From Planctomycetota bacterium (GTDB lineage: Bacteria; Planctomycetota; Planctomycetia; Planctomycetales; Planctomycetaceae): DNA of 64,000 nucleotides. Below, piece after piece: positions 1-13,332 of this stretch (within the stretch, counting starts at the first letter, position 1; every line of letters starts with the position of its first letter). The stretch spans positions 11,353-75,352 of the forward strand of contig JAQCEJ010000006.1 in assembly GCA_027618475.1 (NCBI GenBank), in the 5' to 3' direction. The position numbers were made by a program, and so were the translations under genes. Under the pieces are notes generated by a model. The model saw only the letters and a program-made list of their open reading frames with translations, had not been told where the DNA came from and made no database searches.

Positions 1-501
1 GGCGAAGAATTGTGGTCGATACCGGTCTTCGACAAGCGAGCCGTCAGTTCACCGCTTGTGAAGGGGGACTTGATCTTCGGCAGCACCGGTTCGGGGGGAG
101 GAGGCAACTATCTGGCTGCCGTTCGCAGCAACGGCAAACAGGCCGAAATGGCCTACAAGATCGAAACGGCGGCACCATACGTCCCGACTCCCGTCGCACG
201 CGATGACATGCTGTTCATGTTAAATGACGGCGGCGTTGTTACGTTGCTTGATCTTCCCACCGGAAAAGAAATCTGGCAAAAGCGCATCGGCGGCAACTAT
301 CACGGATCACCCGTGCGCGCGGCCGACAAGTTCTTTTGCGTCAGCGTCGAAGGCGATGTTGTCGTACTTGCCGCCGAACGCGAATTCGAAGAACTGGGAC
401 GCATGTCGCTCGGTGAAGGCTCGCGTTCGAGTCCGGCGATCGCTCGCGGGCAGTTGTACATTCGGACGTTTTCACATTTGATGTCGGTGGGTGGGAAGTA
501 G
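1..501 (+). CDS. PQQ-like/BamB-type beta-propeller repeat protein, C-terminal fragment (5' end lies outside the window)
   Basis: The reading frame is open from the window edge, in the same frame as ORF 10..501. Blade-like segments (GDLIFGSTGSGG, MLFMLNDGGVV, GQLYIRT) resemble PQQ/BamB propeller repeats. No credible start lies inside the window. Confidence 0.6.
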   Translation, partial: GEELWSIPVFDKRAVSSPLVKGDLIFGSTGSGGGGNYLAAVRSNGKQAEMAYKIETAAPYVPTPVARDDMLFMLNDGGVVTLLDLPTGKEIWQKRIGGNYHGSPVRAADKFFCVSVEGDVVVLAAEREFEELGRMSLGEGSRSSPAIARGQLYIRTFSHLMSVGGK

Positions 502-574
502 AACCGATTTCATAACCTGGTTGGCATTTTGATAGATTGAATTTTGCGACACATCAGCATCAAGAGAAGTATCG

Positions 575-2071
575 ATGATGAATGAAATTCTCGTCGGCAA
601 AGGGGACATTCCTGTCCACCTCCTGGCACGGTATGGCAATCGTCACGGGCTGGTCGCCGGAGCGACGGGGACGGGGAAGACGATTTCATTAAACGTACTT
701 GCCGAAGGATTTTCGCACATCGGCGTGCCGGTCTTTATGGCTGACGTCAAAGGAGACGTTGCCGGTCTGGCCCTGGCGGGGGAATCCAACGAAAAAATCA
801 GGCAACGCGTCGAACAGATCGGCATCGACGGGTATGTCAATGAGTCTAATCCGGTCGTCTTCTGGGATCTCTTCGGTAAACGCGGGCATCCGGTGCGAAC
901 GACCGTCAGCGAAATCGGTCCCACTCTGATGTCGCGGATTCTCGAACTCAACGATACCCAATCTGGCGTTCTCGACATCGTCTTCAAACTTGCCGACGAT
1001 CAGGCGTTGCTGTTGCTCGACCTCGAAGATCTTCGTTCGCTGCTGATTTTCGTCGCCGAGAACCGCAAAGACGTTTCGTCGACCTACGGTCTGGTCTCGT
1101 CGCAGTCGATCGGGGCGATTCAACGTCGGCTTCTTTCGCTTGAACGCGATGGGGGAGAAGAATTTCTAGGTGAGCCCGCCCTCGAATTGACCGATTTGAT
1201 GCTTACCGATCTGAACGGACGAGGCATCATCAATATTCTTGCCGCCGAAGAACTCGTCCTCAAGCCGCAGTTGTATTCCAGTTTTCTGTTGTGGCTGATG
1301 TCGGAACTCTTCGAAACATTGCCCGAAGTGGGGGATCTCGACAAGCCGCGGCTGGTCTTTATTTTCGACGAGGCTCATCTTTTATTCGATGATGCACCCC
1401 CGGCATTACTGCGCCAGGTCGAACAGGTGGTGCGCATCATTCGTTCGAAGGGGGTCGGCATTTATTTCTGTTCGCAGTTTCCCGACGATGTTCCCGATGA
1501 CATCCTCGGCCAACTCGGCAACCGTATTCAGCATGCCCTTCGCGCATTTACGCCGCGCGATCAAAAAGCGGTGCGGACGGCGGCCGAGACGTTCGTCCCC
1601 AACCCCAATCTTGATGTCGCACAAACGATTTCGCAGCTCGGCATCGGCGAAGCGTTGACGTCGATGCTGCTCGATAAAGGAGTTCCTATGCCGGTCGAGC
1701 GTACGATCATAGCGCCACCGCGAAGCCGCATGGGTTCGATTACGATCGACGAGCGTAAAGCCGTCATCTCGAAAAGCCCTGTCGTCGGCAAATACGATAC
1801 ACCTCTGAATCGCGAATCGGCGTTCGAAGTGTTGTCGAAACGCGCGGCGTCGCTCGCCGATGCTCAGGCAAAGACCACCGGTTCGGGGGGAGCTTCGACG
1901 GGAGGAGGAGTGGGAAGCAAGATCGGCGAATTGCTCTGGGGGACCAAACGGCGTCAGGGAATGGTTGAAACGATGGCCAAGCAAGCCGCCCGCTCCGCCG
2001 GCAGCCAGATCGGCGGTAAGTTCTTTCGCGGGCTGCTGGGGAGCCTGCTCGGAAGTTTTCGCGGTCGATGA
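575..2071 (+). CDS. DUF853 / HerA-like P-loop NTPase (YjgR family)
   Basis: 498-aa ORF. It has a Walker A GATGTGKT close to the N-terminus and a Walker B-like LVFIFDEAHLLF. The N-terminal text NRHGLVAGATGTGKT..VPVFMADVKGD matches my memory of YjgR-type proteins. Confidence 0.85.
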   Translation: MMNEILVGKGDIPVHLLARYGNRHGLVAGATGTGKTISLNVLAEGFSHIGVPVFMADVKGDVAGLALAGESNEKIRQRVEQIGIDGYVNESNPVVFWDLFGKRGHPVRTTVSEIGPTLMSRILELNDTQSGVLDIVFKLADDQALLLLDLEDLRSLLIFVAENRKDVSSTYGLVSSQSIGAIQRRLLSLERDGGEEFLGEPALELTDLMLTDLNGRGIINILAAEELVLKPQLYSSFLLWLMSELFETLPEVGDLDKPRLVFIFDEAHLLFDDAPPALLRQVEQVVRIIRSKGVGIYFCSQFPDDVPDDILGQLGNRIQHALRAFTPRDQKAVRTAAETFVPNPNLDVAQTISQLGIGEALTSMLLDKGVPMPVERTIIAPPRSRMGSITIDERKAVISKSPVVGKYDTPLNRESAFEVLSKRAASLADAQAKTTGSGGASTGGGVGSKIGELLWGTKRRQGMVETMAKQAARSAGSQIGGKFFRGLLGSLLGSFRGR

Positions 2072-2094
2072 CGACAAGCCGATTCCAGAATCGA

Positions 2095-3222
2095 CTAATT
2101 CGTCACACGTACAATCTGACCCCCCGGCAGACGTCTTACCAGACGTTTCATCTCCAGCACCGTCAGCGTCGACAACACGCGCGACGATTCCAGCTCGCAA
2201 CTGCGCATCACTTCGTCAATAGGACACGGTTCGTTGTGTACGGCATTCAAGACCTGCTGCTCTTGTTCATTGAGCAGTAACTCGCGCGGCGTGAGTACGG
2301 TTTTGCTTTCCGTTTTCGCGACCGGCTTGATGAGCGGGCCGAGCGCTTCGAGAACGTCGTCAACGCCGCGAATCAGCGCCACGCCGTCGCGAATCAAATC
2401 GTGACATCCTTCACTCGCCGCACTGTCCAGTCGGCCGGGGACGGCGAAGACTTCACGGCCTTGTTCCTGTGCATGCCGCACTGTGTGCATGGCTCCACTT
2501 TTTCGCGCCGCTTCGACGATAATCACGCCGAGCGAGAGTCCGCTGATGATGCGATTTCGAAGCGGAAAGATGCCGGGAATCGGCGACTGGTCGAGAGCCG
2601 CTTCGCTAAGAAACGAACCGTTCTGCGAAACCTCTGCCGCGAGTTCGCGGTGTTCGGGAGGGTAGATGTTCGACAAACCTGTCGCCGAGACAGCCACCGT
2701 CCGTCCGCCGGCGATGAGGGCACCGCGATGAGCGGCCGCATCGATGCCGCGCGCCAAACCGCTGACGATGGTGAATCCCGCGTGGGTTAACCCTGCGGCG
2801 AGTTTCTCAGCCTGACGCATTCCATAAGTCGTGCAACTTCGCGAGCCGACAATCGCCAGAGATAATTGATCCTGTGGTAACAATTCTCCCTGGCAATACA
2901 GTAGAATTGGCGGGTCGGGAATCTCGGCCAACATCGGCGGATAGGCCGGCGAACCGAACGGAACAAGCATTATTCCTGCCGATTGGCAGCGGGCAATTGT
3001 CTGTTCGGCGGCCAGGCGGAGTTCAACCTGCCTGATCGCTGTCGCGGCTTTGACGCCGATATGCGGGATCTCCTGCAAATCGCGCAGCGGAGCCGCGAGT
3101 ACATTTTTCGCTGTTGTGAAGTGATTGAGCAGTAGATGGATGGTCCGCGTCCCGACACCGGGAACGAGCGTCAATTGAATCAGGTCGAGCAGTTCATCGG
3201 GAGAAAGTTCGGCGGAAGTCAC
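2095..3222 (-). CDS. dprA: DNA-processing protein DprA (Smf)
   Basis: 375-aa ORF with N-terminal helix-hairpin-helix-like text, a Rossmann-like core containing GLARGIDAAAHRGAL, and a C-terminal winged-helix-like tail. This is typical DprA architecture. Confidence 0.9.
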   Translation of the reverse strand: MTSAELSPDELLDLIQLTLVPGVGTRTIHLLLNHFTTAKNVLAAPLRDLQEIPHIGVKAATAIRQVELRLAAEQTIARCQSAGIMLVPFGSPAYPPMLAEIPDPPILLYCQGELLPQDQLSLAIVGSRSCTTYGMRQAEKLAAGLTHAGFTIVSGLARGIDAAAHRGALIAGGRTVAVSATGLSNIYPPEHRELAAEVSQNGSFLSEAALDQSPIPGIFPLRNRIISGLSLGVIIVEAARKSGAMHTVRHAQEQGREVFAVPGRLDSAASEGCHDLIRDGVALIRGVDDVLEALGPLIKPVAKTESKTVLTPRELLLNEQEQQVLNAVHNEPCPIDEVMRSCELESSRVLSTLTVLEMKRLVRRLPGGQIVRVTN

Positions 3223-3344
3223 GTCGCACCGTATTGAAGTCTGTGGAAGGCCGGAATATAGTACCGTTCACTCATACACTATATTGATACTCGACCTGTG
3301 CTCACATCTCAAGTGACAGGCTTCAAGAGTAGCAGCCTGTAGTC

Positions 3345-3471
3345 AATGAGGGATGATCAAATTCTGTGTGCCATGGGTGGCTTGTCCACCCGTGTTTTTC
3401 CGATGGCTCACAAGCACAGGGCCAGGCAAGCACACGGCCGGACAAGCCGGTAGTGCCACCCATTTTTCAAC
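3345..3471. repeat. Structured intergenic repeat, copy A (inverted copy B at 43684..43797)
   Basis: The + strand here aligns with the reverse complement of 43684..43797, for example aatgagggatgatcaaatt.tgtgtgcca.gggtggcttgtcc.cccgtg ... gccggacaagccgg.agtgccacc.atttttcaac. It contains two 9-bp hairpins, 3372-3394 and 3433-3455. Element ends are approximate. Confidence 0.8.
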
Positions 3472-3493
3472 GCGCTGGTAGGAGGGATTAACC

Positions 3494-4945
3494 ATGAATC
3501 GCCAATCGAAAGACCCGTTGAAAGTAAGGGCGATCGGCCTCATTCGTTTCGTCATCAGCGCGGTTACTTTGCATACCTTGCGGGCGAGCGTTCCCTTCGT
3601 GTTGCCGTTTATGCTGCTGCAAATGGCTTCCCTTCAGGCAGCGGGTTTGCAGATCGCTTACTTCACGGCCGATATTTCTCCCCCGCTGCATCAGCGGGTC
3701 TGCGTCGGATTCATTCAGGAATTCACCGAGATCGAACATCCTCTGCTCGCGAAAGGAGTCATTCTGAAAGATGACGGTGGCGTCTACGTCTTGTGCGCTC
3801 TCGATTACTGCGGGCTGTGTAACGACTCGTATGATGCGTTTCGTCGGCAGATTGCGGCGGCGGCGAAGACTCCTCCGAAAAACGTCGCCGTGCAATCGCT
3901 GCATCAGCATACTTCACCCGTGTTCGACGCCAACACCGATCGACTTTTATATGGGGACGACCAGAAATTGTTCGACGAGGGGCGGTCCGCCGAGAAAGCC
4001 GCGATCGATTCTATCGTCGACGCGATCGAACACGCGCAATCGAATTGGAGCGACGTTTCGCATCTGACGGCGGTCACTCAGAAAGTTGATCGCGTCGCGT
4101 CGAACCGTCGCGTCGAGCAACCCGACGGATCGATCGTCGTCCGCTACAGTGCAGGAGCGAAAGATCCCGCGATGCGTGCTGCTCCGGAAGGGTTGATCGA
4201 TCCGATGCTGCGAACGATTACGTTTTTCAATGACAAGACGCCGCTGTTGAGAATGCATTATTACGCAACGCATCCGCAAACGCGCAGCGGGGGAAAAGTG
4301 ACCTACGACGCCGTCGGCATGGCGCGCGAGCGGGTCGAACAAATGACCGGCGTGCCGCAGATGTACTTCACCGGTTGTGGCGGGAATGTCACGATGGGGA
4401 AGTATAACTCGGGGACCGATGCCGAGCGGGCCGAGATTTCCGACCGGTTGTTCCAGGCGATGACGGCGGCCTGCAAAAAAGCCGATCGCGCCGAACAGCT
4501 CTCTTCCGAAACGATCGACTGGTCGACGGCCGAGGTTAATTTTCCGATTCGCGAGGATGCCCCGTTTTCGGAAGAGTTTCAGCGAAACAATTATCAGGAC
4601 ACGAACGTCGCGTTCAGTTCGCGATTGCGTTCCGCCATGTACGTCTCCTGGATCGATCGGCTGAAGAAGAGGCCGGGGGTCGAATTCAGTTGCCTGACGA
4701 TCGGCAACGTTCGCATGGTGCATCTCCCCGGAGAGCCGTTCGTGCAGTTTCAGTTGGCTGCACAGAATTCGGCCGGCGACGATTTCGTGGCCGTCGCCGG
4801 GTATGGTGAATGTGCGCCTTGGTACATCGGCGAAGATCGCATATTTACCGACAACGGCGGATACGAGCAGACATGGTCGTTCGTCGCTCCCTGCGAAGGG
4901 CTGATGCACGAGACCATCCGCAATTTGATGACATCTCCGAAATAA
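3494..4945 (+). CDS. Hypothetical exported protein; tentatively a neutral-ceramidase-like hydrolase fold
   Basis: 483-aa ORF. A Shine-Dalgarno-like aggaggg lies 8 nt upstream of the ATG, and the N-terminus is hydrophobic. Segments SLHQHTSPV and TGCGGNVTMGKYN are reminiscent of the HTHsGP and GDVSPN motifs of ceramidase-type enzymes. The product call is weak. Confidence 0.7.
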   Translation: MNRQSKDPLKVRAIGLIRFVISAVTLHTLRASVPFVLPFMLLQMASLQAAGLQIAYFTADISPPLHQRVCVGFIQEFTEIEHPLLAKGVILKDDGGVYVLCALDYCGLCNDSYDAFRRQIAAAAKTPPKNVAVQSLHQHTSPVFDANTDRLLYGDDQKLFDEGRSAEKAAIDSIVDAIEHAQSNWSDVSHLTAVTQKVDRVASNRRVEQPDGSIVVRYSAGAKDPAMRAAPEGLIDPMLRTITFFNDKTPLLRMHYYATHPQTRSGGKVTYDAVGMARERVEQMTGVPQMYFTGCGGNVTMGKYNSGTDAERAEISDRLFQAMTAACKKADRAEQLSSETIDWSTAEVNFPIREDAPFSEEFQRNNYQDTNVAFSSRLRSAMYVSWIDRLKKRPGVEFSCLTIGNVRMVHLPGEPFVQFQLAAQNSAGDDFVAVAGYGECAPWYIGEDRIFTDNGGYEQTWSFVAPCEGLMHETIRNLMTSPK

Positions 4946-5242
4946 TAATGCTTGGAAGACAGAGGGTCTTCGGACGGCATCTCTCGCCGGTTGTAAAAAA
5001 TGCAACGTGCAACTCGTACGGCGTGAATGAGATACAAGAAATCATCGAAGCCCGCGCGGCGACTGTGAACGTTGTATTCCGTTGCAACAGCAAAAAATCT
5101 CAAATATTGGGCGTTGACTTAACGTTCAATTCAGGGACCCCTTCTATAATCCGTGGGTGTGAACTTATGAAAACGAGTCTGGAACGACGCTCTCGGGCTC
5201 CCCTCGTCAGTCAACGACCGTGAAAAAACTGTTTGAATTGGA

Positions 5243-5698
5243 GTGACGACTATGAAACCGCCAAAGATTTCTCTGACATTCGTGATGTCGGTCATCGCGC
5301 TCACGACCACAGGGTTGTGGGGGTACGAACGATTCGGTCGTGAGGCTCGTCCCCCTCGTCCGCAGGATGAACACGCGCAACGCGACGCTGATTACGGACA
5401 TCATTTTGCCAGCGTCGACGATGAGTTCGCACCAGAAGACGACGTCGCGTGGAATGAGCAAGACGGGTCTTTCGACGATTACGGTTATGGAGACGAATAC
5501 ACTGACAACGACGCGTATGCATTCGCCGATGAGCGCGACGCGTTTGCCGATCGAGGTGGTAAAGGTCGCGGTGGTCCTCCTCAGGGACGCGGACCGGCAT
5601 CATTCGGCGGTCACGCTAAGGGCCCCCAGGGGGTTGGACATCGACCGCACGGGGGACACCCGGCGTTTGGTGGCGGTCGTGGACCTCACCGGGGATGA
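5243..5698 (+). CDS. Signal-anchor / acidic / Gly-His-Pro-rich protein; probably the N-terminal part of the following gene
   Basis: 151-aa ORF. It has an N-terminal TM segment (ISLTFVMSVIALTTTGLWGY), then an Asp/Glu/Tyr-rich stretch, then a GRGGPPQGRGP..GGHPAFGGGRGPHRG tail. The stop overlaps the next ATG (ATGA). Confidence 0.65.
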   Translation: MTTMKPPKISLTFVMSVIALTTTGLWGYERFGREARPPRPQDEHAQRDADYGHHFASVDDEFAPEDDVAWNEQDGSFDDYGYGDEYTDNDAYAFADERDAFADRGGKGRGGPPQGRGPASFGGHAKGPQGVGHRPHGGHPAFGGGRGPHRG

Positions 5699-7005
5699 TG
5701 GGCCGCGGCGGTTTTGGCCCACATCATTTTGCCGGGGGACATACCCCTCATGGTCAAGGTCCGGGGGCACGATTCGCCGGGTTCCATTACAGAGGTGCAG
5801 GGGCAGCAATGGCCATGCACAGGGGTGGCCCGGGAGGACAGTGTCCTCATTGTGGACAATGTCCTCATTGCGGAGCGAACAGAAACGCCGGACACGCTCC
5901 TCGCATGGGCTGGCATCATGGCGGACCTCATCGTGGTCATGGTCATCACGCCTGGGGACGCGGTATGCATCGTGGCGGGCCGTGGGGTCATTACGGTCAT
6001 CACCGGGGTCGACATGGCATGCATCGCGGCGGACACGGCGGTCATCACGGTCATCACGGCTGGTCACGAGGGGGTCATCGCGGACATCACAATCATCACG
6101 GCGGCTGGGGCCGTTGCGGTAAGGGACACGGAGGAAAGCACGGCCATCATCGGGGTGGACACCATATGAAACGTGGCGGACACAAAAGCTGTCATGCTCA
6201 TCATCGTGGCGCCGGCAAAGGTGGTCATCACAAAGCCAAAGGTCACGGACATCATGGTGCCGCATCCAGGCAGGGACACAAAGGAAAACAGACCGCCCGT
6301 CATGGTCATCAACCTGCCGCCAAGAAAGGTGGTTGGATGGGCCATATGGCTCACGGACGTGGCGGCGTCCATCACGGCCGTCCCGGTACTCATGGTCGAG
6401 CCGTCGGTGCGGGAGCACGGGCACATATCGGAGGTCATCTGATGATGTTGGCTCAACTTGACGCGAATCACGACAAGCAGCTCAGCAAAGAAGAGCTGAA
6501 CGCCATGTTCGACAAGGTCGATGCCAATGCGGACGGGCAGATCACGTGGGAAGAAGGAAAGAAGTTTCATGAAACCCAACGTGCCGAGATGATGAATAAA
6601 ATGAAAGAAGCCTTCTCGCCCGAAAACATCTTCAAAAAACTCGACAAGAATGGCGACGGAAAATTGTCAAAAGAAGATGACATCAAATTCTGGGATCGGC
6701 TGTCGCACGCCGATGCCGACAAAGACGGGTCGGTCTCCAAAGAAGAGCTTGAAGCCGGTATGAAAAAAATGCGGGAAGCGATGCACAAGCATCGAGGCGG
6801 ACTTCGCAAAGGAAAGCAAGCACAACCAAAAAAAGAAGAACCCGCCGCTGAAACCAAGGCGGACACCGCCGCCATTGAACTCCCGGTCCCGATGCCGGAA
6901 CTCGGAGAGCCCGAGATCGACAGCGTCATCACCGAAGTGCAGGTCGATGCCCCCGTCGAAGCGGTGATTCCCACCGATACGTCGGCAGAAACGAAAGTCG
7001 AATAG
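5695..7005 (+). CDS. Histidine/glycine-rich protein with four EF-hand calcium-binding loops
   Basis: 436-aa ORF. Roughly the first 230 aa are dominated by H, G and R and include a tandem QCPHCGQCPHCG. They are followed by four canonical EF-hand loops (DANHDKQLSKEE, DANADGQITWEE, DKNGDGKLSKED, DADKDGSVSKEE) and an acidic tail. The ORF has no signal peptide of its own. Confidence 0.75.
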   Translation: MMGRGGFGPHHFAGGHTPHGQGPGARFAGFHYRGAGAAMAMHRGGPGGQCPHCGQCPHCGANRNAGHAPRMGWHHGGPHRGHGHHAWGRGMHRGGPWGHYGHHRGRHGMHRGGHGGHHGHHGWSRGGHRGHHNHHGGWGRCGKGHGGKHGHHRGGHHMKRGGHKSCHAHHRGAGKGGHHKAKGHGHHGAASRQGHKGKQTARHGHQPAAKKGGWMGHMAHGRGGVHHGRPGTHGRAVGAGARAHIGGHLMMLAQLDANHDKQLSKEELNAMFDKVDANADGQITWEEGKKFHETQRAEMMNKMKEAFSPENIFKKLDKNGDGKLSKEDDIKFWDRLSHADADKDGSVSKEELEAGMKKMREAMHKHRGGLRKGKQAQPKKEEPAAETKADTAAIELPVPMPELGEPEIDSVITEVQVDAPVEAVIPTDTSAETKVE

Positions 7006-7023
7006 GGTCGACCGGTTCATCGA

Positions 7024-7051
7024 GACACCGGTTCTTCAATGAACCGGTGTC
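7024..7051 (+). terminator. Stem-loop just after the His-rich gene (11-bp stem, 6-nt loop, no clear U-tract)
   Basis: gacaccggttc-ttcaat-gaaccggtgtc lies 19 nt after the stop at 7005. The absence of a T-run makes terminator function uncertain. Confidence 0.4.
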
Positions 7052-7189
7052 ATCGAATGAGCGGGACAATTGTAAACACGGATCGTTACGCGGTCCGCCG
7101 CGTTTATCCACGACAATCGTAGTCGTCGAAAACGAGGCGAGCCGATCTGGAGCAGGGCGATCTGTGAAGTTGGTTGAAAAACTGTGCTG

Positions 7190-7232
7190 ACACCGACAAC
7201 ATGAAGTGGCCACTTCATGTTGTCGGTGTTTT
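7190..7232 (+). promoter_or_regulatory. 40-bp perfect palindrome followed by TTTT (terminator, attenuator or operator) upstream of the response regulator
   Basis: acaccgacaacatgaagtgg (7190-7209) is the exact reverse complement of ccacttcatgttgtcggtgt (7210-7229). A T4 run spans 7229-7232, and the response-regulator start is at 7273. Confidence 0.6.
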
Positions 7233-7272
7233 CATGTCAGGCTGTTACTCTACACCGTTGAACCGATCTATC

Positions 7273-7926
7273 ATGCGAATCTTACTTGTCGAAGACGAAC
7301 TCGATCTCCTCAAGGCCGTCAAACGGTTTCTTGACGACGAACACTACGCCGTCGATGTCGCCAGCGACGGTGAAGAGGGTCTCACCAAAGCGCTGATGTG
7401 GAACTACGACCTCGTCGTGCTCGACCTGATGCTTCCGAAAATCGACGGCTTGACCGTGTTGAAAGAAATCCGTCGCAGAAAGCGGACACCGATCCTCATT
7501 CTGACCGCGCGTGACACTCTGCAAGACCGCGTCGCCGGCCTCGATATCGGCGCCGACGATTATTTGGTCAAGCCCTTCGAACTCGATGAACTCTCGGCCC
7601 GCATTCGCGCGCTGATCCGCCGTTCGGTCGGCGTTGCCAGTCCCAATGTTGAAATCGGCGAAACGGTCATCGATCTGTCGGCCAAGCAGGTTCGCAAAGC
7701 GGGCGTTCCGGTGGCTCTGACGGCGATGGAGTATTCGCTCGTTGAGTATTTGGCCCTCCGCCGTGGAAAATTAGTTTCCCGTTCAGACTTGTACGATCAC
7801 CTGTTCGATGAACATGATGATAGCCTGTCGAACCTGCTCGACGTACACGTCTCGAATGTCCGTCGAAAACTCGGTAAAGAACTCATCACGACGCGTCGCG
7901 GTCAAGGATACTTGATTGATGATTAA
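7273..7926 (+). CDS. OmpR-family response regulator (REC + winged-helix DNA-binding domain)
   Basis: MRILLVEDE..DLVVLDLMLPKIDG..DDYLVKPF receiver text, with a C-terminal trans_reg_C-like RRGQGYLI. I chose the internal ATG at 7273 because the longer ORF from 7174 runs through the palindrome. Confidence 0.9.
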   Translation: MRILLVEDELDLLKAVKRFLDDEHYAVDVASDGEEGLTKALMWNYDLVVLDLMLPKIDGLTVLKEIRRRKRTPILILTARDTLQDRVAGLDIGADDYLVKPFELDELSARIRALIRRSVGVASPNVEIGETVIDLSAKQVRKAGVPVALTAMEYSLVEYLALRRGKLVSRSDLYDHLFDEHDDSLSNLLDVHVSNVRRKLGKELITTRRGQGYLIDD

Positions 7927-9643
7927 ATCGCTTCGTTGGCGATTGCAAATCTGGCACGCCGTTATTCTGGCGGTCGTGCTGACGCTATTCGGTGGATACA
8001 GTTACGCCCTGCAATGGCAGTCTCGATTGCAACAGGTCGACGCCGAACTCGACCGGACAGCGGGCATCGTGATCTCCCGCCTCCGCTGGGGATACCGCCG
8101 CGTCAACGACAACAATAACCGGCCCGACGGCAATCGAAACCGTCGCCGTCCCCCCGAACTTCCGGGTGCCGCCTCCGACGAACGGCTCGAAGAATCGGTC
8201 CCCGTCGGCACGGCGTTGACTACCGTTGCGATGGCCTCCGTTGCTGATGACCGTTCGACAAATTCCACCGGCGAAAGTTCCGAAACCGAGCGTCCGCCGG
8301 GCGATCGTTCATCAAGCGGCGAAGCGAAGTCGAACGAAACCTCTGCAAATAATGACGAGTCGCGCGACAATCGTCGTCGCGGTTCGGGGCGCAGCGGGCG
8401 GTTCGGACGCAACCTGAGAATGGAATGGCGCGGGATTTCGTTTCCGGACGACATGTTGAATCCTCCCGATCAGGAAATGACCTCCCCCATCTATTTCGCC
8501 ATCTGGAATTCATCGGGAGAATTACTGCAACGCTCGCAGGCCGCTCCCGAGTTGGCGTACCCGCGTCCCGAACTTACCGAATCGGAACGCGACCAGCGGT
8601 CGGCGATCATCATGCGCTCGGCTCGATTGCTCGACGGCCGGCGCGAAGTCGTGCAGACGATCGGCTGGGGAGAGTTCTATCATACGATTGTGGTCGGCCG
8701 TTCGCTCGCCGATGAAGTCGTCTCGCAACATCGCTTTCTCTTGTTGATCGTCGCTGCCGGATTGGCGATTCTCGTCGTCGGCATGCTCGGCGGAGGCTGG
8801 CTGACATCGCGCGCCATTCAACCGTTGACCAACATGTCGCAAACCGCCGCATCGATCTCGGCGACGAATCTCGATGCCCGCATCGACGTTCTCGACACCG
8901 ATACCGAACTGGGGCAGCTGGCGACGGTACTCAATCAGACGTTCGACCGATTACAAGCGGCGTTCGAACAGCAGGTCCGTTTTACGGCGGATGCCTCTCA
9001 CGAACTGCGCACGCCGGTCTCGATCTTGTTGGCACAGACTCAGATGGCGCTCTCGAAATCGCGCAGCGATGAAGATTATCGCGAGGCGCTCGACTCGTGT
9101 CGGCGAGCCGCGCTGCGCATGAAATCGCTCACCGAAAGTCTGTTGTCGCTGGCACGATTCGATTCGGTCGACGCCGCCGAGAAATCGGCGGTCGACGTGC
9201 ATCGGCTGATCGACGACGCCGTCGAACTGTTGAAGCCGATTGCGCACGAGCACGACGTGACTGTCACGACGAACGGCATGCCATGCGAGGTGTCGGGAGA
9301 CGCCGAACAACTCTCGCAATTGCTGATGAATCTGATTTCGAACGCGATTCGATACAATCGTCCGCACGGCCGAGTTAAAGTCGACCTGACGCGCGAAGAC
9401 GAAACCGCCGTCATTACGATCAACGACACCGGCCTGGGAATTTCTTCAGACGATCTGCCGCATGTGTTCGAGCGATTCTATCGCATCGACAAAGCCCGCA
9501 CGCGCGCCGCCGGCGGCAGCGGCCTGGGCCTGTCGATCGCCAAAGCGATCGTCCAGTCGCACGGCGGAGAGATCACCGTCGACAGCGAACCCGACGTCGG
9601 CACCACAGTCACAGTCAAGCTGCCGTGCGGTGAAACAGCGTGA
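7916..9643 (+). CDS. Sensor histidine kinase (two TM segments, HAMP, HisKA, HATPase_c), CusS/heavy-metal-sensor-like layout
   Basis: H-box FTADASHELRTP, N-box LISNAIRYN, G-boxes NDTGLGI and GGSGLGLSI. It overlaps the response-regulator stop by 11 nt. The periplasmic segment contains a long Arg/Ser/Asp/Asn-rich low-complexity insert. Confidence 0.9.
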   Translation: MMIKSLRWRLQIWHAVILAVVLTLFGGYSYALQWQSRLQQVDAELDRTAGIVISRLRWGYRRVNDNNNRPDGNRNRRRPPELPGAASDERLEESVPVGTALTTVAMASVADDRSTNSTGESSETERPPGDRSSSGEAKSNETSANNDESRDNRRRGSGRSGRFGRNLRMEWRGISFPDDMLNPPDQEMTSPIYFAIWNSSGELLQRSQAAPELAYPRPELTESERDQRSAIIMRSARLLDGRREVVQTIGWGEFYHTIVVGRSLADEVVSQHRFLLLIVAAGLAILVVGMLGGGWLTSRAIQPLTNMSQTAASISATNLDARIDVLDTDTELGQLATVLNQTFDRLQAAFEQQVRFTADASHELRTPVSILLAQTQMALSKSRSDEDYREALDSCRRAALRMKSLTESLLSLARFDSVDAAEKSAVDVHRLIDDAVELLKPIAHEHDVTVTTNGMPCEVSGDAEQLSQLLMNLISNAIRYNRPHGRVKVDLTREDETAVITINDTGLGISSDDLPHVFERFYRIDKARTRAAGGSGLGLSIAKAIVQSHGGEITVDSEPDVGTTVTVKLPCGETA

Positions 9644-9753
9644 TAAGGTGATAGCCTTGTAAGTCGGTTCCCTCGGTTGACATCATGCAGCAATGCTCCC
9701 CAACTCATTGGTGCCACGGCGTGTGGATGCCTTTGGCACAAGAAGCGGGGTAG

Positions 9754-9776
9754 CACCGGTTGCTTGTCAACTGGTG
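9754..9776. repeat. Hairpin of the CAC-N6-CTTGT-N6'-GTG family (possible degenerate relative of the 3.4/43.7 kb element)
   Basis: caccggttg-cttgt-caactggtg forms a 9-bp stem with one G:T pair. The loop and closing bases are the same as in the hairpins at 3372-3394 and 43699-43721. Confidence 0.5.
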
Positions 9777-9902
9777 TCGCGCAGCGAATAGAGGTGTCTT
9801 TCGTTTGCCGTTGAATGGCCTCTTGCCGTTTCACGGCACCGGTTGCGAGCAACCGGAGCGACCCGGTAGGTGATTGCTTCGGGACAACCCCATCGCGTTT
9901 CC

Positions 9903-9977
9903 TTCGGACATTCGGTCATTCGGAATTGATTCGTCATTCGGATTTCGACATTCGGATTTCGACATTCGACATTCCGG
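9903..9977. repeat. Short tandem repeat built on CATTCGG, including 2 x cattcggatttcga
   Basis: cattcgg occurs at 9909, 9917, 9935 and 9949. The variants cattcga and cattccgg occur at 9963 and 9970. The 14-nt unit cattcggatttcga is repeated head-to-tail at 9935-9962. Confidence 0.85.
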
Positions 9978-9988
9978 TGAAAGGGACC

Positions 9989-10074
9989 CTCATCCGGCCT
10001 GCGGCCACCTTCTCCCAGGGGGAGAAGGAAATTTCGAAAGGCGCAAACACGATTGGGTTGCGCGCAACGTTTTT
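9989..10074 (+). repeat. Two-hairpin + T-run element, copy 1 (copy 2 at 26374..26481)
   Basis: ctcatccggcctgcggccaccttctcccagggggagaaggaaatttcgaaaggcgcaaac... aligns with 26374 onward. It holds the hairpin ccttctccc-agg-gggagaagg (10008-10028), a GC-rich palindrome gttgcgcgcaac (10057-10068), and then TTTTT. Confidence 0.7.
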
Positions 10075-10612
10075 CAAACCATTTTATGTTGGCGTGATCG
10101 TTGAAAATGCATCGATGTTTATGAATATGCAAAACCGTGTCGAAAGCGCGCATTTTTGGCGAAAAACGTGCGCGAAAGGGGCGCGAGAGGCTCGTGAGAC
10201 GAAATTTCGATCGCATTTATGCCCCTTTTTGCAATCTGAAACAACGATGAATGAGAGCGCAACGGCGAGGGGTAAAGGACTGAATATTCCCGGTTTTTCA
10301 GGGCTTGGCGCAACTGCATCAGGGATGGTGCAGGGGGGAATGAACCTTGACTCTGAGAAATCGAAAGGCCGGGCAATGAATGATTCATGCCGAGTGAAAA
10401 ACTCGACGATCTGCGTAACGGTTTCGGTGTTCGCGCTCACCCTTCACCCGGCGACTGCGCCGCCATGCTCTTCCGGGGGAAGATGGTTTTGATGAAACGG
10501 CGTCGCTTTGCGGTTGAACTTTTGAGCGGGCATTTGCTCGCCGATTCTTCGTTCACATTCTCCGCGCCACTCATGCAGGGGGCGTTGTCGAGATTCGCGG
10601 AACACCGCGGTG

Positions 10613-11602
10613 CTATTTTTCGTTGCGAGCTGTCGCGAAAACCTCGTCGAGGGCGGCGGCGAGATCCAGTCGGCGGAAGGTCAATCCCGTCTCATCGTCT
10701 TTGACTTCAACGCCCGTTCGCTGCAGAATCGTCATCATCGCCTCGGGAAGATTTTCGCCCTCCTGTTTCCAGTCGTACTCCGCTTTTTCAATCGCTTCGC
10801 GGAGAATCATGACCGAACCGCAGAGAATCGCATTCGATGACGACGTAGCTGCGGCGGGGACGACAAGATCGACCTTGGGATGCCGGTCGAGGTAGACTTC
10901 GTCCTTTCCGACTCTCACCGCACCGATCGCGAAGCAGTTCGGCTGCGATGCGGGCCACGAAATCCCCTTCAGATAGTTGTGATTGCCAGCGGGGGCGCTC
11001 ACCCACACGCCGAGTTTTCGCAGTTCGGCGAGCTTTTCGTCGATGTCGGTTGGGACCGGTTCGGCATGTTCCAGATCGTCGACCGGGGCGAGATTGACGG
11101 TCGTAATGTTGTATTTCTCGGAGTTGTCGATCACCCATTGCAATCCGGCGGCGAGCGAGACGTGGTCTTTGACGTTGCAGTGACAACATTCGAGGCCGCG
11201 GATAACGGCGACCTGGTTATTGTAGGCGACTCCCCATTTGCCGTCGTAGTTGAGCGATGAGGGGACACCGATGGTCGACCCGTGATAGCCGCGTCCCTCG
11301 TGCTTAGGGTCGTTGTCGCCGTCGACGCTGTCGTAAGTGACGCGAACTTTCTTCACGCCGTTAACCGGCGTCGACCATTCGGGCATCGAGAGATCACAAC
11401 CGTCATCGAGCAACGCGAGCGTCTGCCCTTTGCCGAAGGTGAGTATCTCGGCATACGTCATCCAGGCCTCTGTGATGCGGGCATGATCAAACTCGATTTT
11501 TTCGACTGGTTCACCGGCGTTCGCAAGACAGATTCCGCCGGCGACCAGAGCCATGAAAACCCGCCAGGTTGTTGTCGAAGCTCGTTCTGGTTTTTGATTC
11601 AT
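10613..11602 (-). CDS. Secreted subtilisin-like (S8 family) serine peptidase, tentative
   Basis: Signal-peptide-like N-terminus when started at 11602 (an alternative upstream start is at 11665). Candidate catalytic triad contexts are LALLDDG (Asp), GYHGSTIG (His), APAGNHN (oxyanion Asn) and AAATSSS (Ser). The Ser motif is atypical. Confidence 0.6.
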   Translation of the reverse strand: MNQKPERASTTTWRVFMALVAGGICLANAGEPVEKIEFDHARITEAWMTYAEILTFGKGQTLALLDDGCDLSMPEWSTPVNGVKKVRVTYDSVDGDNDPKHEGRGYHGSTIGVPSSLNYDGKWGVAYNNQVAVIRGLECCHCNVKDHVSLAAGLQWVIDNSEKYNITTVNLAPVDDLEHAEPVPTDIDEKLAELRKLGVWVSAPAGNHNYLKGISWPASQPNCFAIGAVRVGKDEVYLDRHPKVDLVVPAAATSSSNAILCGSVMILREAIEKAEYDWKQEGENLPEAMMTILQRTGVEVKDDETGLTFRRLDLAAALDEVFATARNEK

Positions 11603-11815
11603 AACGCGAGAATTCCTGAAAAGGGGATGCCGATCTTTAGCGTATCTTGCAGCCCGCCGGTGCAATTTTCAAGCAGATTCTGAAAACAGACATTGCTATC
11701 AAGACGGAAATAATTGCAGCAAATTTCATTCGGCGCTCGAAATTACGGTTGAATGTCGTAGAATCTACGTTGTGCGGATCCTTTAGCAACTCGATCTAGC
11801 GATAGCGAGACAGCC

Positions 11816-12727
11816 ATGACAACGATCTTGATAGTCGACGATTCGGCAGCCGATCGCGCACTGGCGAGTGGTTTGTTGCAAAAACGGAGCGGCAATAAGG
11901 TCTTGTTCGCCACGAACGGCATCGAAGCCCTCTCGCAGATCGAGATGCACATTCCCGATCTGGTCGTCACCGATTTGCAGATGCCTGATATGAACGGGCT
12001 GGAACTGGTCGACGCGATCAAGGCGAATTATCCGCTGATCCCCGTCATTTTGATGACGTCTCAGGGGAGTGAAGAGATCGCCGTAAAGGCCTTGCGATCC
12101 GGGGCGGCGAGTTACGTTCCGAAGAAATCGCTGGCTCGAGAATTGTCCGAAACGGTTGAAATGGTTGCCGCTTCGCTGCGCGAGGACCGTGCCCATTCGC
12201 GATTGATGTTTCATCGAATGACGAAAAGCGACTCGACATTCGAGTTGCCGAATGATCTGTCGCTGATTCCCCCCTTAGTCAGTCATTTGCGGCAGATGAC
12301 ACGGTACATGGGCGTCTGCAACGATTCGGATCGGCTGCGCGTGGGTGTAGCGATCGAAGAAGCGCTGGTGAATGCGTATTATCACGGCAATCTCGAAGTC
12401 AGTTCGGTGCTCCGCGAGCAGAATCATAATCAATATCACGATTTAGCGCGAAGTCGGATGGAGCAGTCGCCGTATCGCGACCGCAAAATTCACGTCGAGT
12501 CGCGGTTGACGCGCGAGCATGCGACGTTCGTGATTCGTGACGAAGGTCCGGGATTCAATCCGGAACTGGTTCCTGACCCGACCGATCAGAAGAATCTCGA
12601 CCGCCCCTGGGGACGCGGATTATTGCTCATCAGAACATTTATGGATGATCTGCATTTCAACAGTTCAGGTAACGAGGTCACGATGATCAAGCAGCGCAGT
12701 GAGTCCATTAACGACGAAGAGGCATGA
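11816..12727 (+). CDS. Response-regulator receiver domain fused to an RsbW/SpoIIAB-like HATPase (anti-sigma-factor-type Ser kinase)
   Basis: N-terminal REC text (ILIVDDS..DLVVTDLQMPDMNG..SYVPKK). The C-terminal half has EEALVNAYYHGN and VIRDEGPGFNP..GRGLLLI, which are typical of HATPase_c_2 anti-sigma kinases. Confidence 0.8.
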   Translation: MTTILIVDDSAADRALASGLLQKRSGNKVLFATNGIEALSQIEMHIPDLVVTDLQMPDMNGLELVDAIKANYPLIPVILMTSQGSEEIAVKALRSGAASYVPKKSLARELSETVEMVAASLREDRAHSRLMFHRMTKSDSTFELPNDLSLIPPLVSHLRQMTRYMGVCNDSDRLRVGVAIEEALVNAYYHGNLEVSSVLREQNHNQYHDLARSRMEQSPYRDRKIHVESRLTREHATFVIRDEGPGFNPELVPDPTDQKNLDRPWGRGLLLIRTFMDDLHFNSSGNEVTMIKQRSESINDEEA

Positions 12728-12759
12728 GGCCGTCCAATCTAACAGCGGGGGGCTAAACC

Positions 12760-13131
12760 ATGGATCAGCAGACTTTTTTTGATGACGAGACGCTACAAAA
12801 TATTGCTGTCGTTTCGTTGAAGAGCCACCTTTCGAACTACCAGGGGGATGAATTCCTTTCCGCCATCAAGGCCTTGGGCGAAGAGTACGAGCGTTCTGGG
12901 ATCACCGCCGTACTTGTCGATTTTTCGCGAGTGAAATACTTTGGTTCATCGGTTCTGGAAGGGCTGCGGCTTCTCTGGAAGGAATTGGGAGCCGGGGAGA
13001 GACAGGTTTCGCTGTGCGGACTGAACGATGTCTGCCATCAGATTATACATTTATCGCATTTCGACCACGTCTGGTCCGTCTATCCGGACCGACAGTCGGC
13101 GTTGAGTGCACTGGCACCCGATCAACCATAG
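12760..13131 (+). CDS. STAS-domain protein (anti-sigma-factor antagonist, RsbV/SpoIIAA-like)
   Basis: 123-aa ORF lying 33 nt after the RsbW-like gene. Its text (VLVDFSRVKYFGSSVLEGLRLL) fits the STAS fold, with the conserved phosphorylatable Ser context. Confidence 0.75.
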   Translation: MDQQTFFDDETLQNIAVVSLKSHLSNYQGDEFLSAIKALGEEYERSGITAVLVDFSRVKYFGSSVLEGLRLLWKELGAGERQVSLCGLNDVCHQIIHLSHFDHVWSVYPDRQSALSALAPDQP

Positions 13132-13332
13132 CTCCGCTCGAAATCTGAAATGACGTGGATATCCTCCGAAGAGCTTCATCTTCGCGTACACTATGGTATA
13201 CTGGCGTGACTGAAGCTTCGTCGGCTTCGTTGGTGTGACATGCTGAGCACGACGACCACTGATGTCACAGCTGCCTGCTCATCATCAAATTGTGCGAATT
13301 CGTGTTAGGTTGTAATCGGTCTGGGTCAATCG

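Follow-up and report, generated by a model that had tools for sequence, protein, structure and literature searches.

The sil and pco determinants include the heavy-metal two-component systems SilRS and PcoRS, and ZraP has Gly/His/Met-rich ends. In the silver-resistance operon sil, SilE serves as a disordered metal sponge of the periplasm (PMC5008109); ZraSR has ZraP as its periplasmic accessory protein (PMC12314577), and EfhP (PA4107) is a periplasmic EF-hand Ca2+ sensor with a micromolar Kd that relays Ca2+ signals (PMC9132961). Calprotectin has a His-rich site where the binding of transition metals is modulated by Ca2+ binding (PMC5361872, PMC10393864), and filaggrin-type proteins phase-separate (PMC8659386). 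Here we describe a gene that resembles these systems in function or layout, in a stretch of 64,000 nucleotides (the window) from a Planctomycetota bacterium of the Planctomycetaceae (assembly GCA_027618475.1, contig JAQCEJ010000006.1, positions 11,353 to 75,352). It appears there as two open reading frames (ORFs) on the forward strand: ORF1 (5252..5698, frame 2, 148 residues), with a membrane anchor and an acidic block, and ORF2 (5695..7005, frame 1, 436 residues), with a disordered His/Gly/Arg/Trp block, four EF-hands and an acidic/Pro-rich tail. An earlier sequence-only reading had treated the two as separate and had missed the frameshift between them; comparison with the relatives, where they form one gene, indicates that they are its two halves. 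We tentatively regard the product as a tethered envelope cation sponge and as a partner of the two-component system encoded downstream.

The gene was found, in NCBI and Logan data, in three Planctomycetaceae species, namely that of the window and two related species known from metagenome-assembled genomes (MAGs). In one of these, contig JBJXGP010000187.1 (L003), a single unbroken frame of 638 residues (3135-5048) joins the conserved anchor to the EF-hands, likewise conserved, and to the tail; the order within it is the anchor (…LWGYERFGR…), an acidic block, a Gly/Arg/His block, CPHCGACPHCG, a His/Gly/Trp block, the EF-hands and the tail. In the other, contig JBBECD010000053.1 (L004, listed at 5582-7648), a single ORF encodes 686 residues from MDRPRISL, or 688 from an upstream TTG. 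L004 agrees with the contig L001 over the region read and is free of the scaffold gap present in L001. The full-length chain of the relatives therefore has about 640-690 residues and consists of the anchor, an acidic block, a basic Gly/Arg/Pro block, one or two CPxCG units, about 200 residues rich in His/Gly/Arg/Trp, the EF-hands and an acidic tail. Between its acidic and basic blocks, the L004/L001 orthologue has an additional stretch of about 110 residues (L004 about 5870-6200), rich in Ala/Glu/Lys/Leu and coiled-coil-like; in L001, the corresponding DNA lies within a 100-N scaffold gap.

In the window, the frame of ORF1 is closed by a stop codon at 5696-5698, within the frameshift site CCGGGGATGATG (CGG GGA TGA, 5690..5698, forward strand), which overlaps the ATG of ORF2 at 5695. 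The two frames would be joined if the GGGG run (5691-5694) had one more base, or if the ribosome slipped by -1 at the TGA stop codon, from GGA onto GGG. An identical sequence is present in the MAG GCA_027623135.1, in ENA ERZ23495043 and in the Logan assemblies of runs SRR2027816 and SRR2027830. Since it recurs in two runs and two deposited assemblies, the frameshift is not an assembler artefact, although all of the assemblies that carry it may sample one population. The copy in this genome may thus be inactive, may be expressed in two parts, or may rely on slippage of the ribosome.

The first of these states would be that of a recent pseudogene, in which the frameshift has cut the anchor from the rest, no working protein is made and the locus is decaying. 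Both relatives have a continuous ORF where the window stops one base short of frame, the lesion is the same in the MAG and the metagenome assembly and in both sequencing runs, and ORF2 has neither a signal nor an anchor of its own. However, the lesion is a single one, 436 codons stay open downstream of it, and the EF-hand part is strongly constrained between the window and L004 (proportion of nonsynonymous differences, pN, 0.10; of synonymous differences, pS, 0.60), so that any inactivation would be very recent. The ATGA overlap is, moreover, the commonest layout of translationally coupled genes, and the possible origin of all assemblies in one population also bears against decay, which we consider a serious but rather unlikely account.

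It is improbable, in our judgement, that the split is tolerated or even used, with ORF2 coupled at the ATGA to yield an anchored acidic protein and a soluble His-rich EF-hand protein, or with a -1 slip of tRNA-Gly yielding the full-length chain. The 4-nucleotide overlap would suit such coupling, and a run of four Gs stands directly before the stop codon in the A site, where a one-base shift gives …HRG-MMGR…, a composition like that of the relatives. On the other hand, no ribosome-binding site is visible ahead of ATG 5695, and neither relative has the arrangement, which is therefore no conserved recoding signal. Programmed frameshifting was rejected, because the site has no canonical slippery heptamer (X XXY YYZ) and no significant downstream RNA structure (z = -1.1).

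The His/Gly stretch itself evolves as coding sequence. In pairwise DNA alignments of the block, 20 of the 26 gaps are multiples of three, and its length is 597, 600 and 546 nucleotides in the three species. The pN is 0.30-0.46 and the pS 0.67-0.79, in protein-guided alignments, which favour a low pN, and with synonymous divergence (dS) saturated; the two values lie further apart in the EF-hand part (0.10 and 0.60 between the window and L004). The CPHCG and GHHGW(S/G)RGG-type motifs are kept at the protein level. The sequence-only reading had pointed to evolution as noncoding low-complexity DNA as the outcome that would undo it, and these comparisons go the other way. A noncoding stretch, with only a short EF-hand protein being real, could draw on the fact that the other frames and the opposite strand are open too across 5340-6424, on the absence of any homologue of the block among 1.84 billion representative proteins, and on the public annotations, which call just the EF-hand part (243-279 residues); for the genome of the window they list the 148-residue ORF1, a 139-residue ORF in an alternate frame and a 279-residue EF-hand fragment. 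However, the His/Gly frame alone connects anchor and EF-hands, unbroken, in two species, the indels keep that frame, pN stays below pS, and the product of the alternate frame is a Thr/Val/Ile-rich shadow of CAY-GGN codons read one base off. On these alignments the noncoding reading is close to refuted. The spurious alternate-frame ORF lies at 5750-6169 in the window (forward strand, frame 2, 139 residues) and at 3505-4242 in L003 (245 residues). Standard gene callers thus fragment the gene and invent an ORF in another frame, leaving such proteins largely invisible in protein databases, and surveys for them need a search at the DNA level.

The translation start of ORF1 is likely ATG 5252 rather than GTG 5243, from which the frame is also open and which the sequence-only reading had used. 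A Shine-Dalgarno-like GGAG precedes this ATG (5240..5254, forward strand), TGGAGT followed by ATG is kept in all three species, and the 148-residue database protein P0121 begins at the same codon. The anchor and the acidic Asp/Tyr segment that had been claimed for this ORF are both present. The anchor helix (5267-5323, residues 6-24, Kyte-Doolittle 1.5) is the sole hydrophobic stretch, and together with the motif WGYERFGR it is invariant in the three species. It is followed by an Asp/Glu/Tyr block of 75 residues with a net charge of -17 (5327-5551) and then by the start of a basic Gly/Arg/Pro/His block.

In ORF2, which stands in the ORF listing of the window as a frame-1 ORF on the forward strand, residues 1-245 contain 55 His (22.4%) and 74 Gly (30.2%), compared with 2.9% His and 7.8% Gly in the long ORFs of the window; the His/Gly richness claimed from the letters alone is therefore real. 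The claimed tandem CxxC unit, QCPHCGQCPHCG, is indeed duplicated in the window as two CPHCG (CPxCG-type) units (5839..5874, forward strand), which Tandem Repeats Finder (TRF) reports as an 18-nucleotide unit in 2.2 copies with 90% match (5836-5874). At least one copy is kept in all three species, L003 having CPHCGACPHCG and L004 a single CPHCG; the duplication is therefore not a conserved feature. TRF also lists a 54-nucleotide (18-residue) tandem repeat of 2.4 copies within the His/Gly block (5937..6065, forward strand). A DsbA-type oxidoreductase was considered and rejected, as CPHC sits in a Gly-rich stretch without predicted secondary structure (predicted local distance difference test, pLDDT, below 50) and no thioredoxin or DSBA Pfam family matches.

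The four EF-hand loops are located at 6460-6495, 6520-6555, 6643-6678 and 6712-6747 on the forward strand (DANHDKQLSKEE, DANADGQITWEE, DKNGDGKLSKED, which has Asp at position 12, and DADKDGSVSKEE). All have 12 residues, with Asp at position 1, Asp or Asn at 3, Asp at 5 and Glu or Asp at 12, and are paired between flanking helices. As the sequence-only reading had supposed, they are canonical: ORF2 matches Pfam EF-hand_5 (PF13202, 60.6 bits, cutoff 25.9, E = 6e-17), EF-hand_1 (PF00036, 58.5 bits, cutoff 25.4, E = 2e-16) and EF-hand_7 (PF13499, 45.5 bits, cutoff 30, E = 1e-11), all above their gathering scores, and the L004 orthologue likewise matches EF-hand Pfam families. The nearest solved relatives of this part are EF-hand proteins of a generic kind, Entamoeba CaBP1, calsensin and calbindin D9k (E = 1e-6 to 1e-10). 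S100 membership was rejected, the matches being to canonical EF-hand families only, with none to Pfam S_100. A basic linker and an acidic/Pro-rich tail with the conserved motif EPAAETKA..AA.E..VPMP follow (6787..7002, forward strand), and the net charge of the tail, -13, bears out the acidic end noted earlier. The motif EEGKKFHETQRA was named, with the anchor motif and CPHCG, as a handle for searches of the family.

AlphaFold2 models of the protein are of low confidence (pLDDT 53 and 47) and were used as a proxy for disorder only. In that of ORF2, residues 1-232 are without secondary structure (pLDDT 32-43), and from residue 233 helices alternate with loops across 233-373 in an EF-hand-like manner. 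The successive blocks of the window protein have net charges of -17 (the acidic block), +11, +31, about 0 and -13, and the block architecture is similar in the other two species when net charges are compared; the acidic segment of L004 also has -17 but spans 182 residues, owing to the coiled-coil-like insert. The flank of the anchor helix is +2 on the N-terminal side and about neutral, then strongly acidic, on the C-terminal side, as read from the sequence. This charge balance fits the envelope protein that had been proposed.

Judged by profile matches, membership of the EF-hand family is the only one established. No other characterised family was matched in Pfam and NCBIfam scans or among the 1.84 billion representative proteins, which agrees with the earlier statement that the architecture could not be assigned. 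The zero matches of the His/Gly block in the latter set are uninformative owing to composition filters and miscalled genes. The homology search with ORF1 returned only ORF1 itself, and exact-protein look-ups with ORF2 and with the GTG-started ORF1 gave no match, since public gene calls differ. The His-rich stretch is in none of the 120 listed EF-hand homologues, which have at most 7 His per 60-residue window. Among database proteins, the nearest are a pair of EF-hand 'hypothetical proteins', of 243 and 263 residues, from Planctomycetaceae MAGs. A scan of GTDB genomes added only L004 and found L003 again (as L005), and two scans of JGI metagenomes with the anchor motif and the EF-hand motif yielded no orthologue. 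Because protein-level searches are blind to miscalled genes, the true range of the gene may be wider. Literature searches found nothing on the accession numbers or on this architecture.

Directly downstream, the sequence-only reading had placed an OmpR-type regulator and a HisKA kinase on the same strand, and Pfam domains confirm both. An OmpR-family response regulator of 217 residues (7273..7926, forward strand; Response_reg and Trans_reg_C) is followed by a sensor histidine kinase (7919..9643, forward strand) with two transmembrane (TM) helices, a periplasmic domain with a low-complexity insert, HAMP, HisKA and HATPase_c. The gene lies directly upstream of this pair in all three species, so that the linkage proposed for checking is kept in two species besides that of the window; the MAG contigs of the 243- and 263-residue proteins have the same layout, namely DprA on the opposite strand, the gene, the OmpR-type regulator and the kinase. 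The kinase is a member of a large family in planctomycetes (42-46% identity over the full length), and its periplasmic domain combines conserved ends with a low-complexity insert that varies; this insert (window about 8070-8400, residues about 50-160) is rich in Asn/Arg/Ser/Asp/Glu/Pro and differs in every member examined, and the ENA assembly differs inside it (L022 7111-7147), splitting the kinase into two gene calls. The closest relative of the kinase (L029, 74% identical) is uninformative on the gene, its contig ending 88 nucleotides upstream of the regulator.

Four more distant kinase loci (L030, L031, L033/34 and L035/36) were compared, and three of them suggest what may be the usual occupant of the position. 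The kinases of L030, L033/34 and L035/36 are 43-50% identical to that of the window (L030, 46%). L030 encodes at 1782-2558, on the reverse strand, a divergently transcribed signal-peptide protein with Gly/Arg-rich flanks that matches Pfam LTXXQ with 41 bits (cutoff 24.3), and the same type of protein follows the regulator/kinase pair in L033/34 (L033 6765-7553) and L035/36 (L035 6900-7691), with borderline LTXXQ scores of 24.0 bits. No LTXXQ-type protein was found at the kinase locus of L031 (Planctomyces sp. SH-PL14), and no LTXXQ-like ORF in the window, L001, L003 or L004. A gene for a PQQ beta-propeller flanks the locus in L030, L033-36 and the window clade, which supports a common origin of the locus. 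The gene is thus encoded beside an envelope-stress-type two-component system, as the LTXXQ genes are, and we infer from this positional analogy that in the window clade the His/Gly-EF-hand gene takes the place of a CpxP/ZraP-type partner. Homology of the gene to the LTXXQ partner was rejected (hhalign probability 1.2%; no PF07813 match at E<=0.01). The planctomycete LTXXQ partners have about 260 residues, with a signal peptide, poly-Gly/Arg flanks and LTXXQ-type helices, in a layout like that of cpxP-cpxRA or zraP-zraSR.

Transcription signals surround the gene on both sides. Upstream conservation among the three species is limited to the ribosome-binding site and a promoter-like block (5117..5157, forward strand), which reads CTTmACGTTCAwTTCAGGGwC, 5 nucleotides and TwTATAATCCG, with TATAAT invariant and with its core ACGTTCAATTCAGGG at 5121-5136. 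The block contains no good -35 hexamer, a lack that would fit an activator-dependent promoter. Downstream, a conserved intergenic element of about 100 nucleotides (7140..7233, forward strand; L004 7770-7862, L003 5150-5243) consists of the block GCCGATYTGGAGCAGGGCGATCTGTGA, a perfect 20-bp hairpin (7190-7229) and TTTT. The hairpin has 17-20 bp and a T-run in each of the three species, and four of its stem pairs are changed on both sides with pairing kept, so that 7190-7233 has the marks of a terminator-like structure that ends the gene ahead of the regulator. A sigma-70 and terminator scanner detected neither the conserved TATAAT block nor the long hairpin, and Rfam gave no family match for the hairpin, with only sub-threshold miRNA-like matches. 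With its own promoter-like block and a conserved terminator, the gene looks like a separate transcription unit. The intergenic element ends only about 40 nucleotides ahead of the regulator start codon in the window and is possibly a small RNA derived from the 3' untranslated region or a leader or attenuator of the regulator/kinase operon. Overlapping inverted repeats of the ACCGGTTCA/TGAACCGGT type, with arms of 11-13 bp, directly follow the stop codon of ORF2 (7011..7051, forward strand); they are absent from both relatives, and TRF lists them as a 16-nucleotide repeat. The motif ACGTTCNNTTC occurs in the promoter of the gene in three species (window 5121-5131) and in the LTXXQ promoter of L033/34 (L033 6711-6721), and may be a shared regulator-binding site. 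As a shared operator it was set aside as a weak lead only, being absent in L030, having one mismatch in L035 (about 6845) and being no better than background by Hamming distance.

In the explanation that we favour, though at somewhat less than even chances, the product is a tethered, disordered envelope cation sponge and a partner of the two-component system. The protein would be held in the cytoplasmic membrane by a short signal-anchor helix at its N-terminus, with its bulk in the periplasm, the charges of the flanks favouring an N-in, C-out orientation. The disordered His/Cys block, with 30-55 His plus Cys available as transition-metal ligands, would bind Zn, Ni, Cu and Co at many low-specificity sites, and the EF-hands and acidic blocks are predicted to bind Ca2+, so that the whole protein, tethered to the membrane, would buffer cations in the manner of a 'sponge'. 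In the Rad50 zinc hook, two chains are bridged through one metal ion; speculatively, chains with one CPxCG each, such as that of L004, could be bridged in pairs in the same way. By analogy with the LTXXQ loci, the gene is probably a stress-responsive target and/or modulator of the adjacent two-component system, for which ZraP with ZraSR (PMC12314577) and, at a greater distance, SilE in the sil determinant (PMC5008109) are models. Topology, metal binding, and regulation by and interaction with the regulator/kinase pair are all inferred only.

Several observations weigh against this explanation. Metal binding is deduced from composition alone, the topology was assigned by hand, and Sec export of a block with a net charge of about +30 is not trivial. 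In this genome, the frameshift separates ORF2 from the anchor/signal peptide, and ORF2 by itself would therefore be cytoplasmic or untranslated. The three species are closely related and share a wider synteny (DprA is upstream in all), so that the kept linkage argues only weakly for a functional connection. The proposed role as an accessory of the kinase gains from the LTXXQ protein at this position in three distant loci, but the conserved terminator between the gene and the regulator argues against simple co-transcription, and the promoter-block core, allowing up to 3 mismatches, recurs in the window only at two distant sites (11983 and 63663) besides the gene's own promoter. As to the likeness of the pair to CusRS/CopRS, the layout agrees and the best NCBIfam match of the kinase is TIGR01386, heavy metal sensor kinase (E = 2e-83, profile positions 80-457), but its 281.0 bits fall just short of the cutoff of 292.55, and the regulator is well below the cutoffs of TIGR01387 (184 vs 279.2), PmrA (212.8 vs 330) and RppA (190 vs 250). 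An alignment of eight sequences revealed no invariant His, Cys or Met in the periplasmic domain of the kinase; the only invariant His of the sensor domain sits in its first hydrophobic segment. The label 'metal-sensor-like' is therefore only partly supported by these profile scores and the alignment. Finally, no metal efflux or uptake genes of the families checked were found in roughly positions 1-14,000 of the window.

There is a small chance that the protein has a physical role instead, neither as a metal buffer nor tied to the kinase: a disordered polyampholyte forming a condensate or gel triggered by pH, Ca2+ or metals, or a hydrophilin/dehydrin-like protectant against salt or desiccation. 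The alternating acidic and basic blocks, the Gly/His/Arg/Trp 'stickers' in GHHGW(S/G)RGG-type repeats, and a His/Gly block whose length is kept as its sequence drifts would suit this role, as would the gene's own promoter-like block and terminator; the eukaryotic S100-fused filaggrin, which joins EF-hands to His-rich low-complexity repeats, phase-separates (PMC8659386). However, such a role leaves unexplained both the conserved CPxCG unit and the kept position beside the regulator/kinase pair, and literature searches gave nothing on the habitats of these MAGs. Combining elements of the sponge and of the condensate, the protein could be a membrane-tethered bacterial counterpart of calprotectin or S100-fused proteins, in which Ca2+-loaded EF-hands gate metal binding and self-association of the His/Gly/Arg/Trp block and of a CPxCG 'hook'; the resulting condensate, switchable by metals and pH and lying on the periplasmic side of the membrane, would both take up metals and control how active a kinase without metal ligands of its own is, in place of the usual CpxP/ZraP-type partner. 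We regard this elaboration as quite improbable.

Other genes around the locus can be noted briefly. Upstream, a 483-residue ORF (window 3494-4945) has a sub-threshold match to the neutral-ceramidase N-terminal family (20.8 bits, cutoff 32.1); it has a counterpart of 459 residues in L003 and is absent in L004. In L001, and in that MAG only, a gene for a PemK-type toxin and a small gene upstream of it (1698-2260), probably a toxin-antitoxin pair, lie between the PQQ propeller gene and DprA. Downstream of the kinase, the window encodes a protein that joins a receiver domain to an RsbW-like HATPase_c_2 domain (11816-12727), then, according to the L021 gene calls, a STAS anti-anti-sigma-type protein (about 12760-13130) and a large Ser/Thr kinase carrying FGE-sulfatase and 3-keto-disaccharide hydrolase domains (from about 13330), and this cluster looks like a partner-switching module.

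If the cation-sponge explanation is true, the gene represents a new build of periplasmic partner for a two-component system of the envelope-stress or metal type, in which a tethered disordered polyampholyte coupling Ca2+ sites to a large metal-binding His/Cys block replaces a folded protein of the CpxP/ZraP type. It would also be a rare prokaryotic fusion of EF-hands with a His-rich low-complexity region, otherwise known from vertebrate calprotectin and filaggrin-type proteins. The frameshifted copy in the window is a poor experimental entry point.

The likeness of the product to SilE and PcoE lies in intrinsic disorder, location in the envelope, numerous His ligands and a supposed bulk binding of metal (PMC5008109). 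However, SilE is a soluble protein of 143 residues, based on His and Met and helical on Ag+ binding, whereas the product described here is 4-5 times longer, membrane-anchored and Gly/Arg/Trp-rich, has CPxCG and EF-hands, and is encoded with no efflux pump genes nearby. The Pfam and NCBIfam scans of ORF1 and ORF2 turned up no SilE/PcoE family, the presence of such a model in these libraries being unconfirmed. With CpxP, Spy and ZraP, the gene shares a genomic place beside an orthologous kinase, as judged from the three distant loci, and the planctomycete LTXXQ partners are Gly/Arg-rich (in their flanks) as the gene product is; the latter is, however, non-homologous, anchored rather than soluble, and has EF-hands instead of a helical LTXXQ core.

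EfhP is likewise a bacterial envelope protein with canonical EF-hands and an N-terminal hydrophobic segment, but it has two EF-hands and no low-complexity blocks. Calprotectin, filaggrin and hornerin also unite, in one protein, EF-hands with His-rich metal binding or with His/Gly/Arg-rich repeats; they are eukaryotic, have N-terminal EF-hands of the S100 type and lack a membrane anchor, so the comparison is an analogy only. The neighbouring pair resembles CusRS, CopRS and CzcRS in its two TM helices, HAMP, HisKA, HATPase and OmpR-type regulator, and differs from them in scoring below the TIGR01386/TIGR01387 cutoffs, in its long sensor insert and in the lack of an adjacent efflux operon. In short, none of SilE/PcoE, ZraP, EfhP, calprotectin and filaggrin appears to be homologous to this protein outside the EF-hands, and what it shares with them is a resemblance in function or layout.

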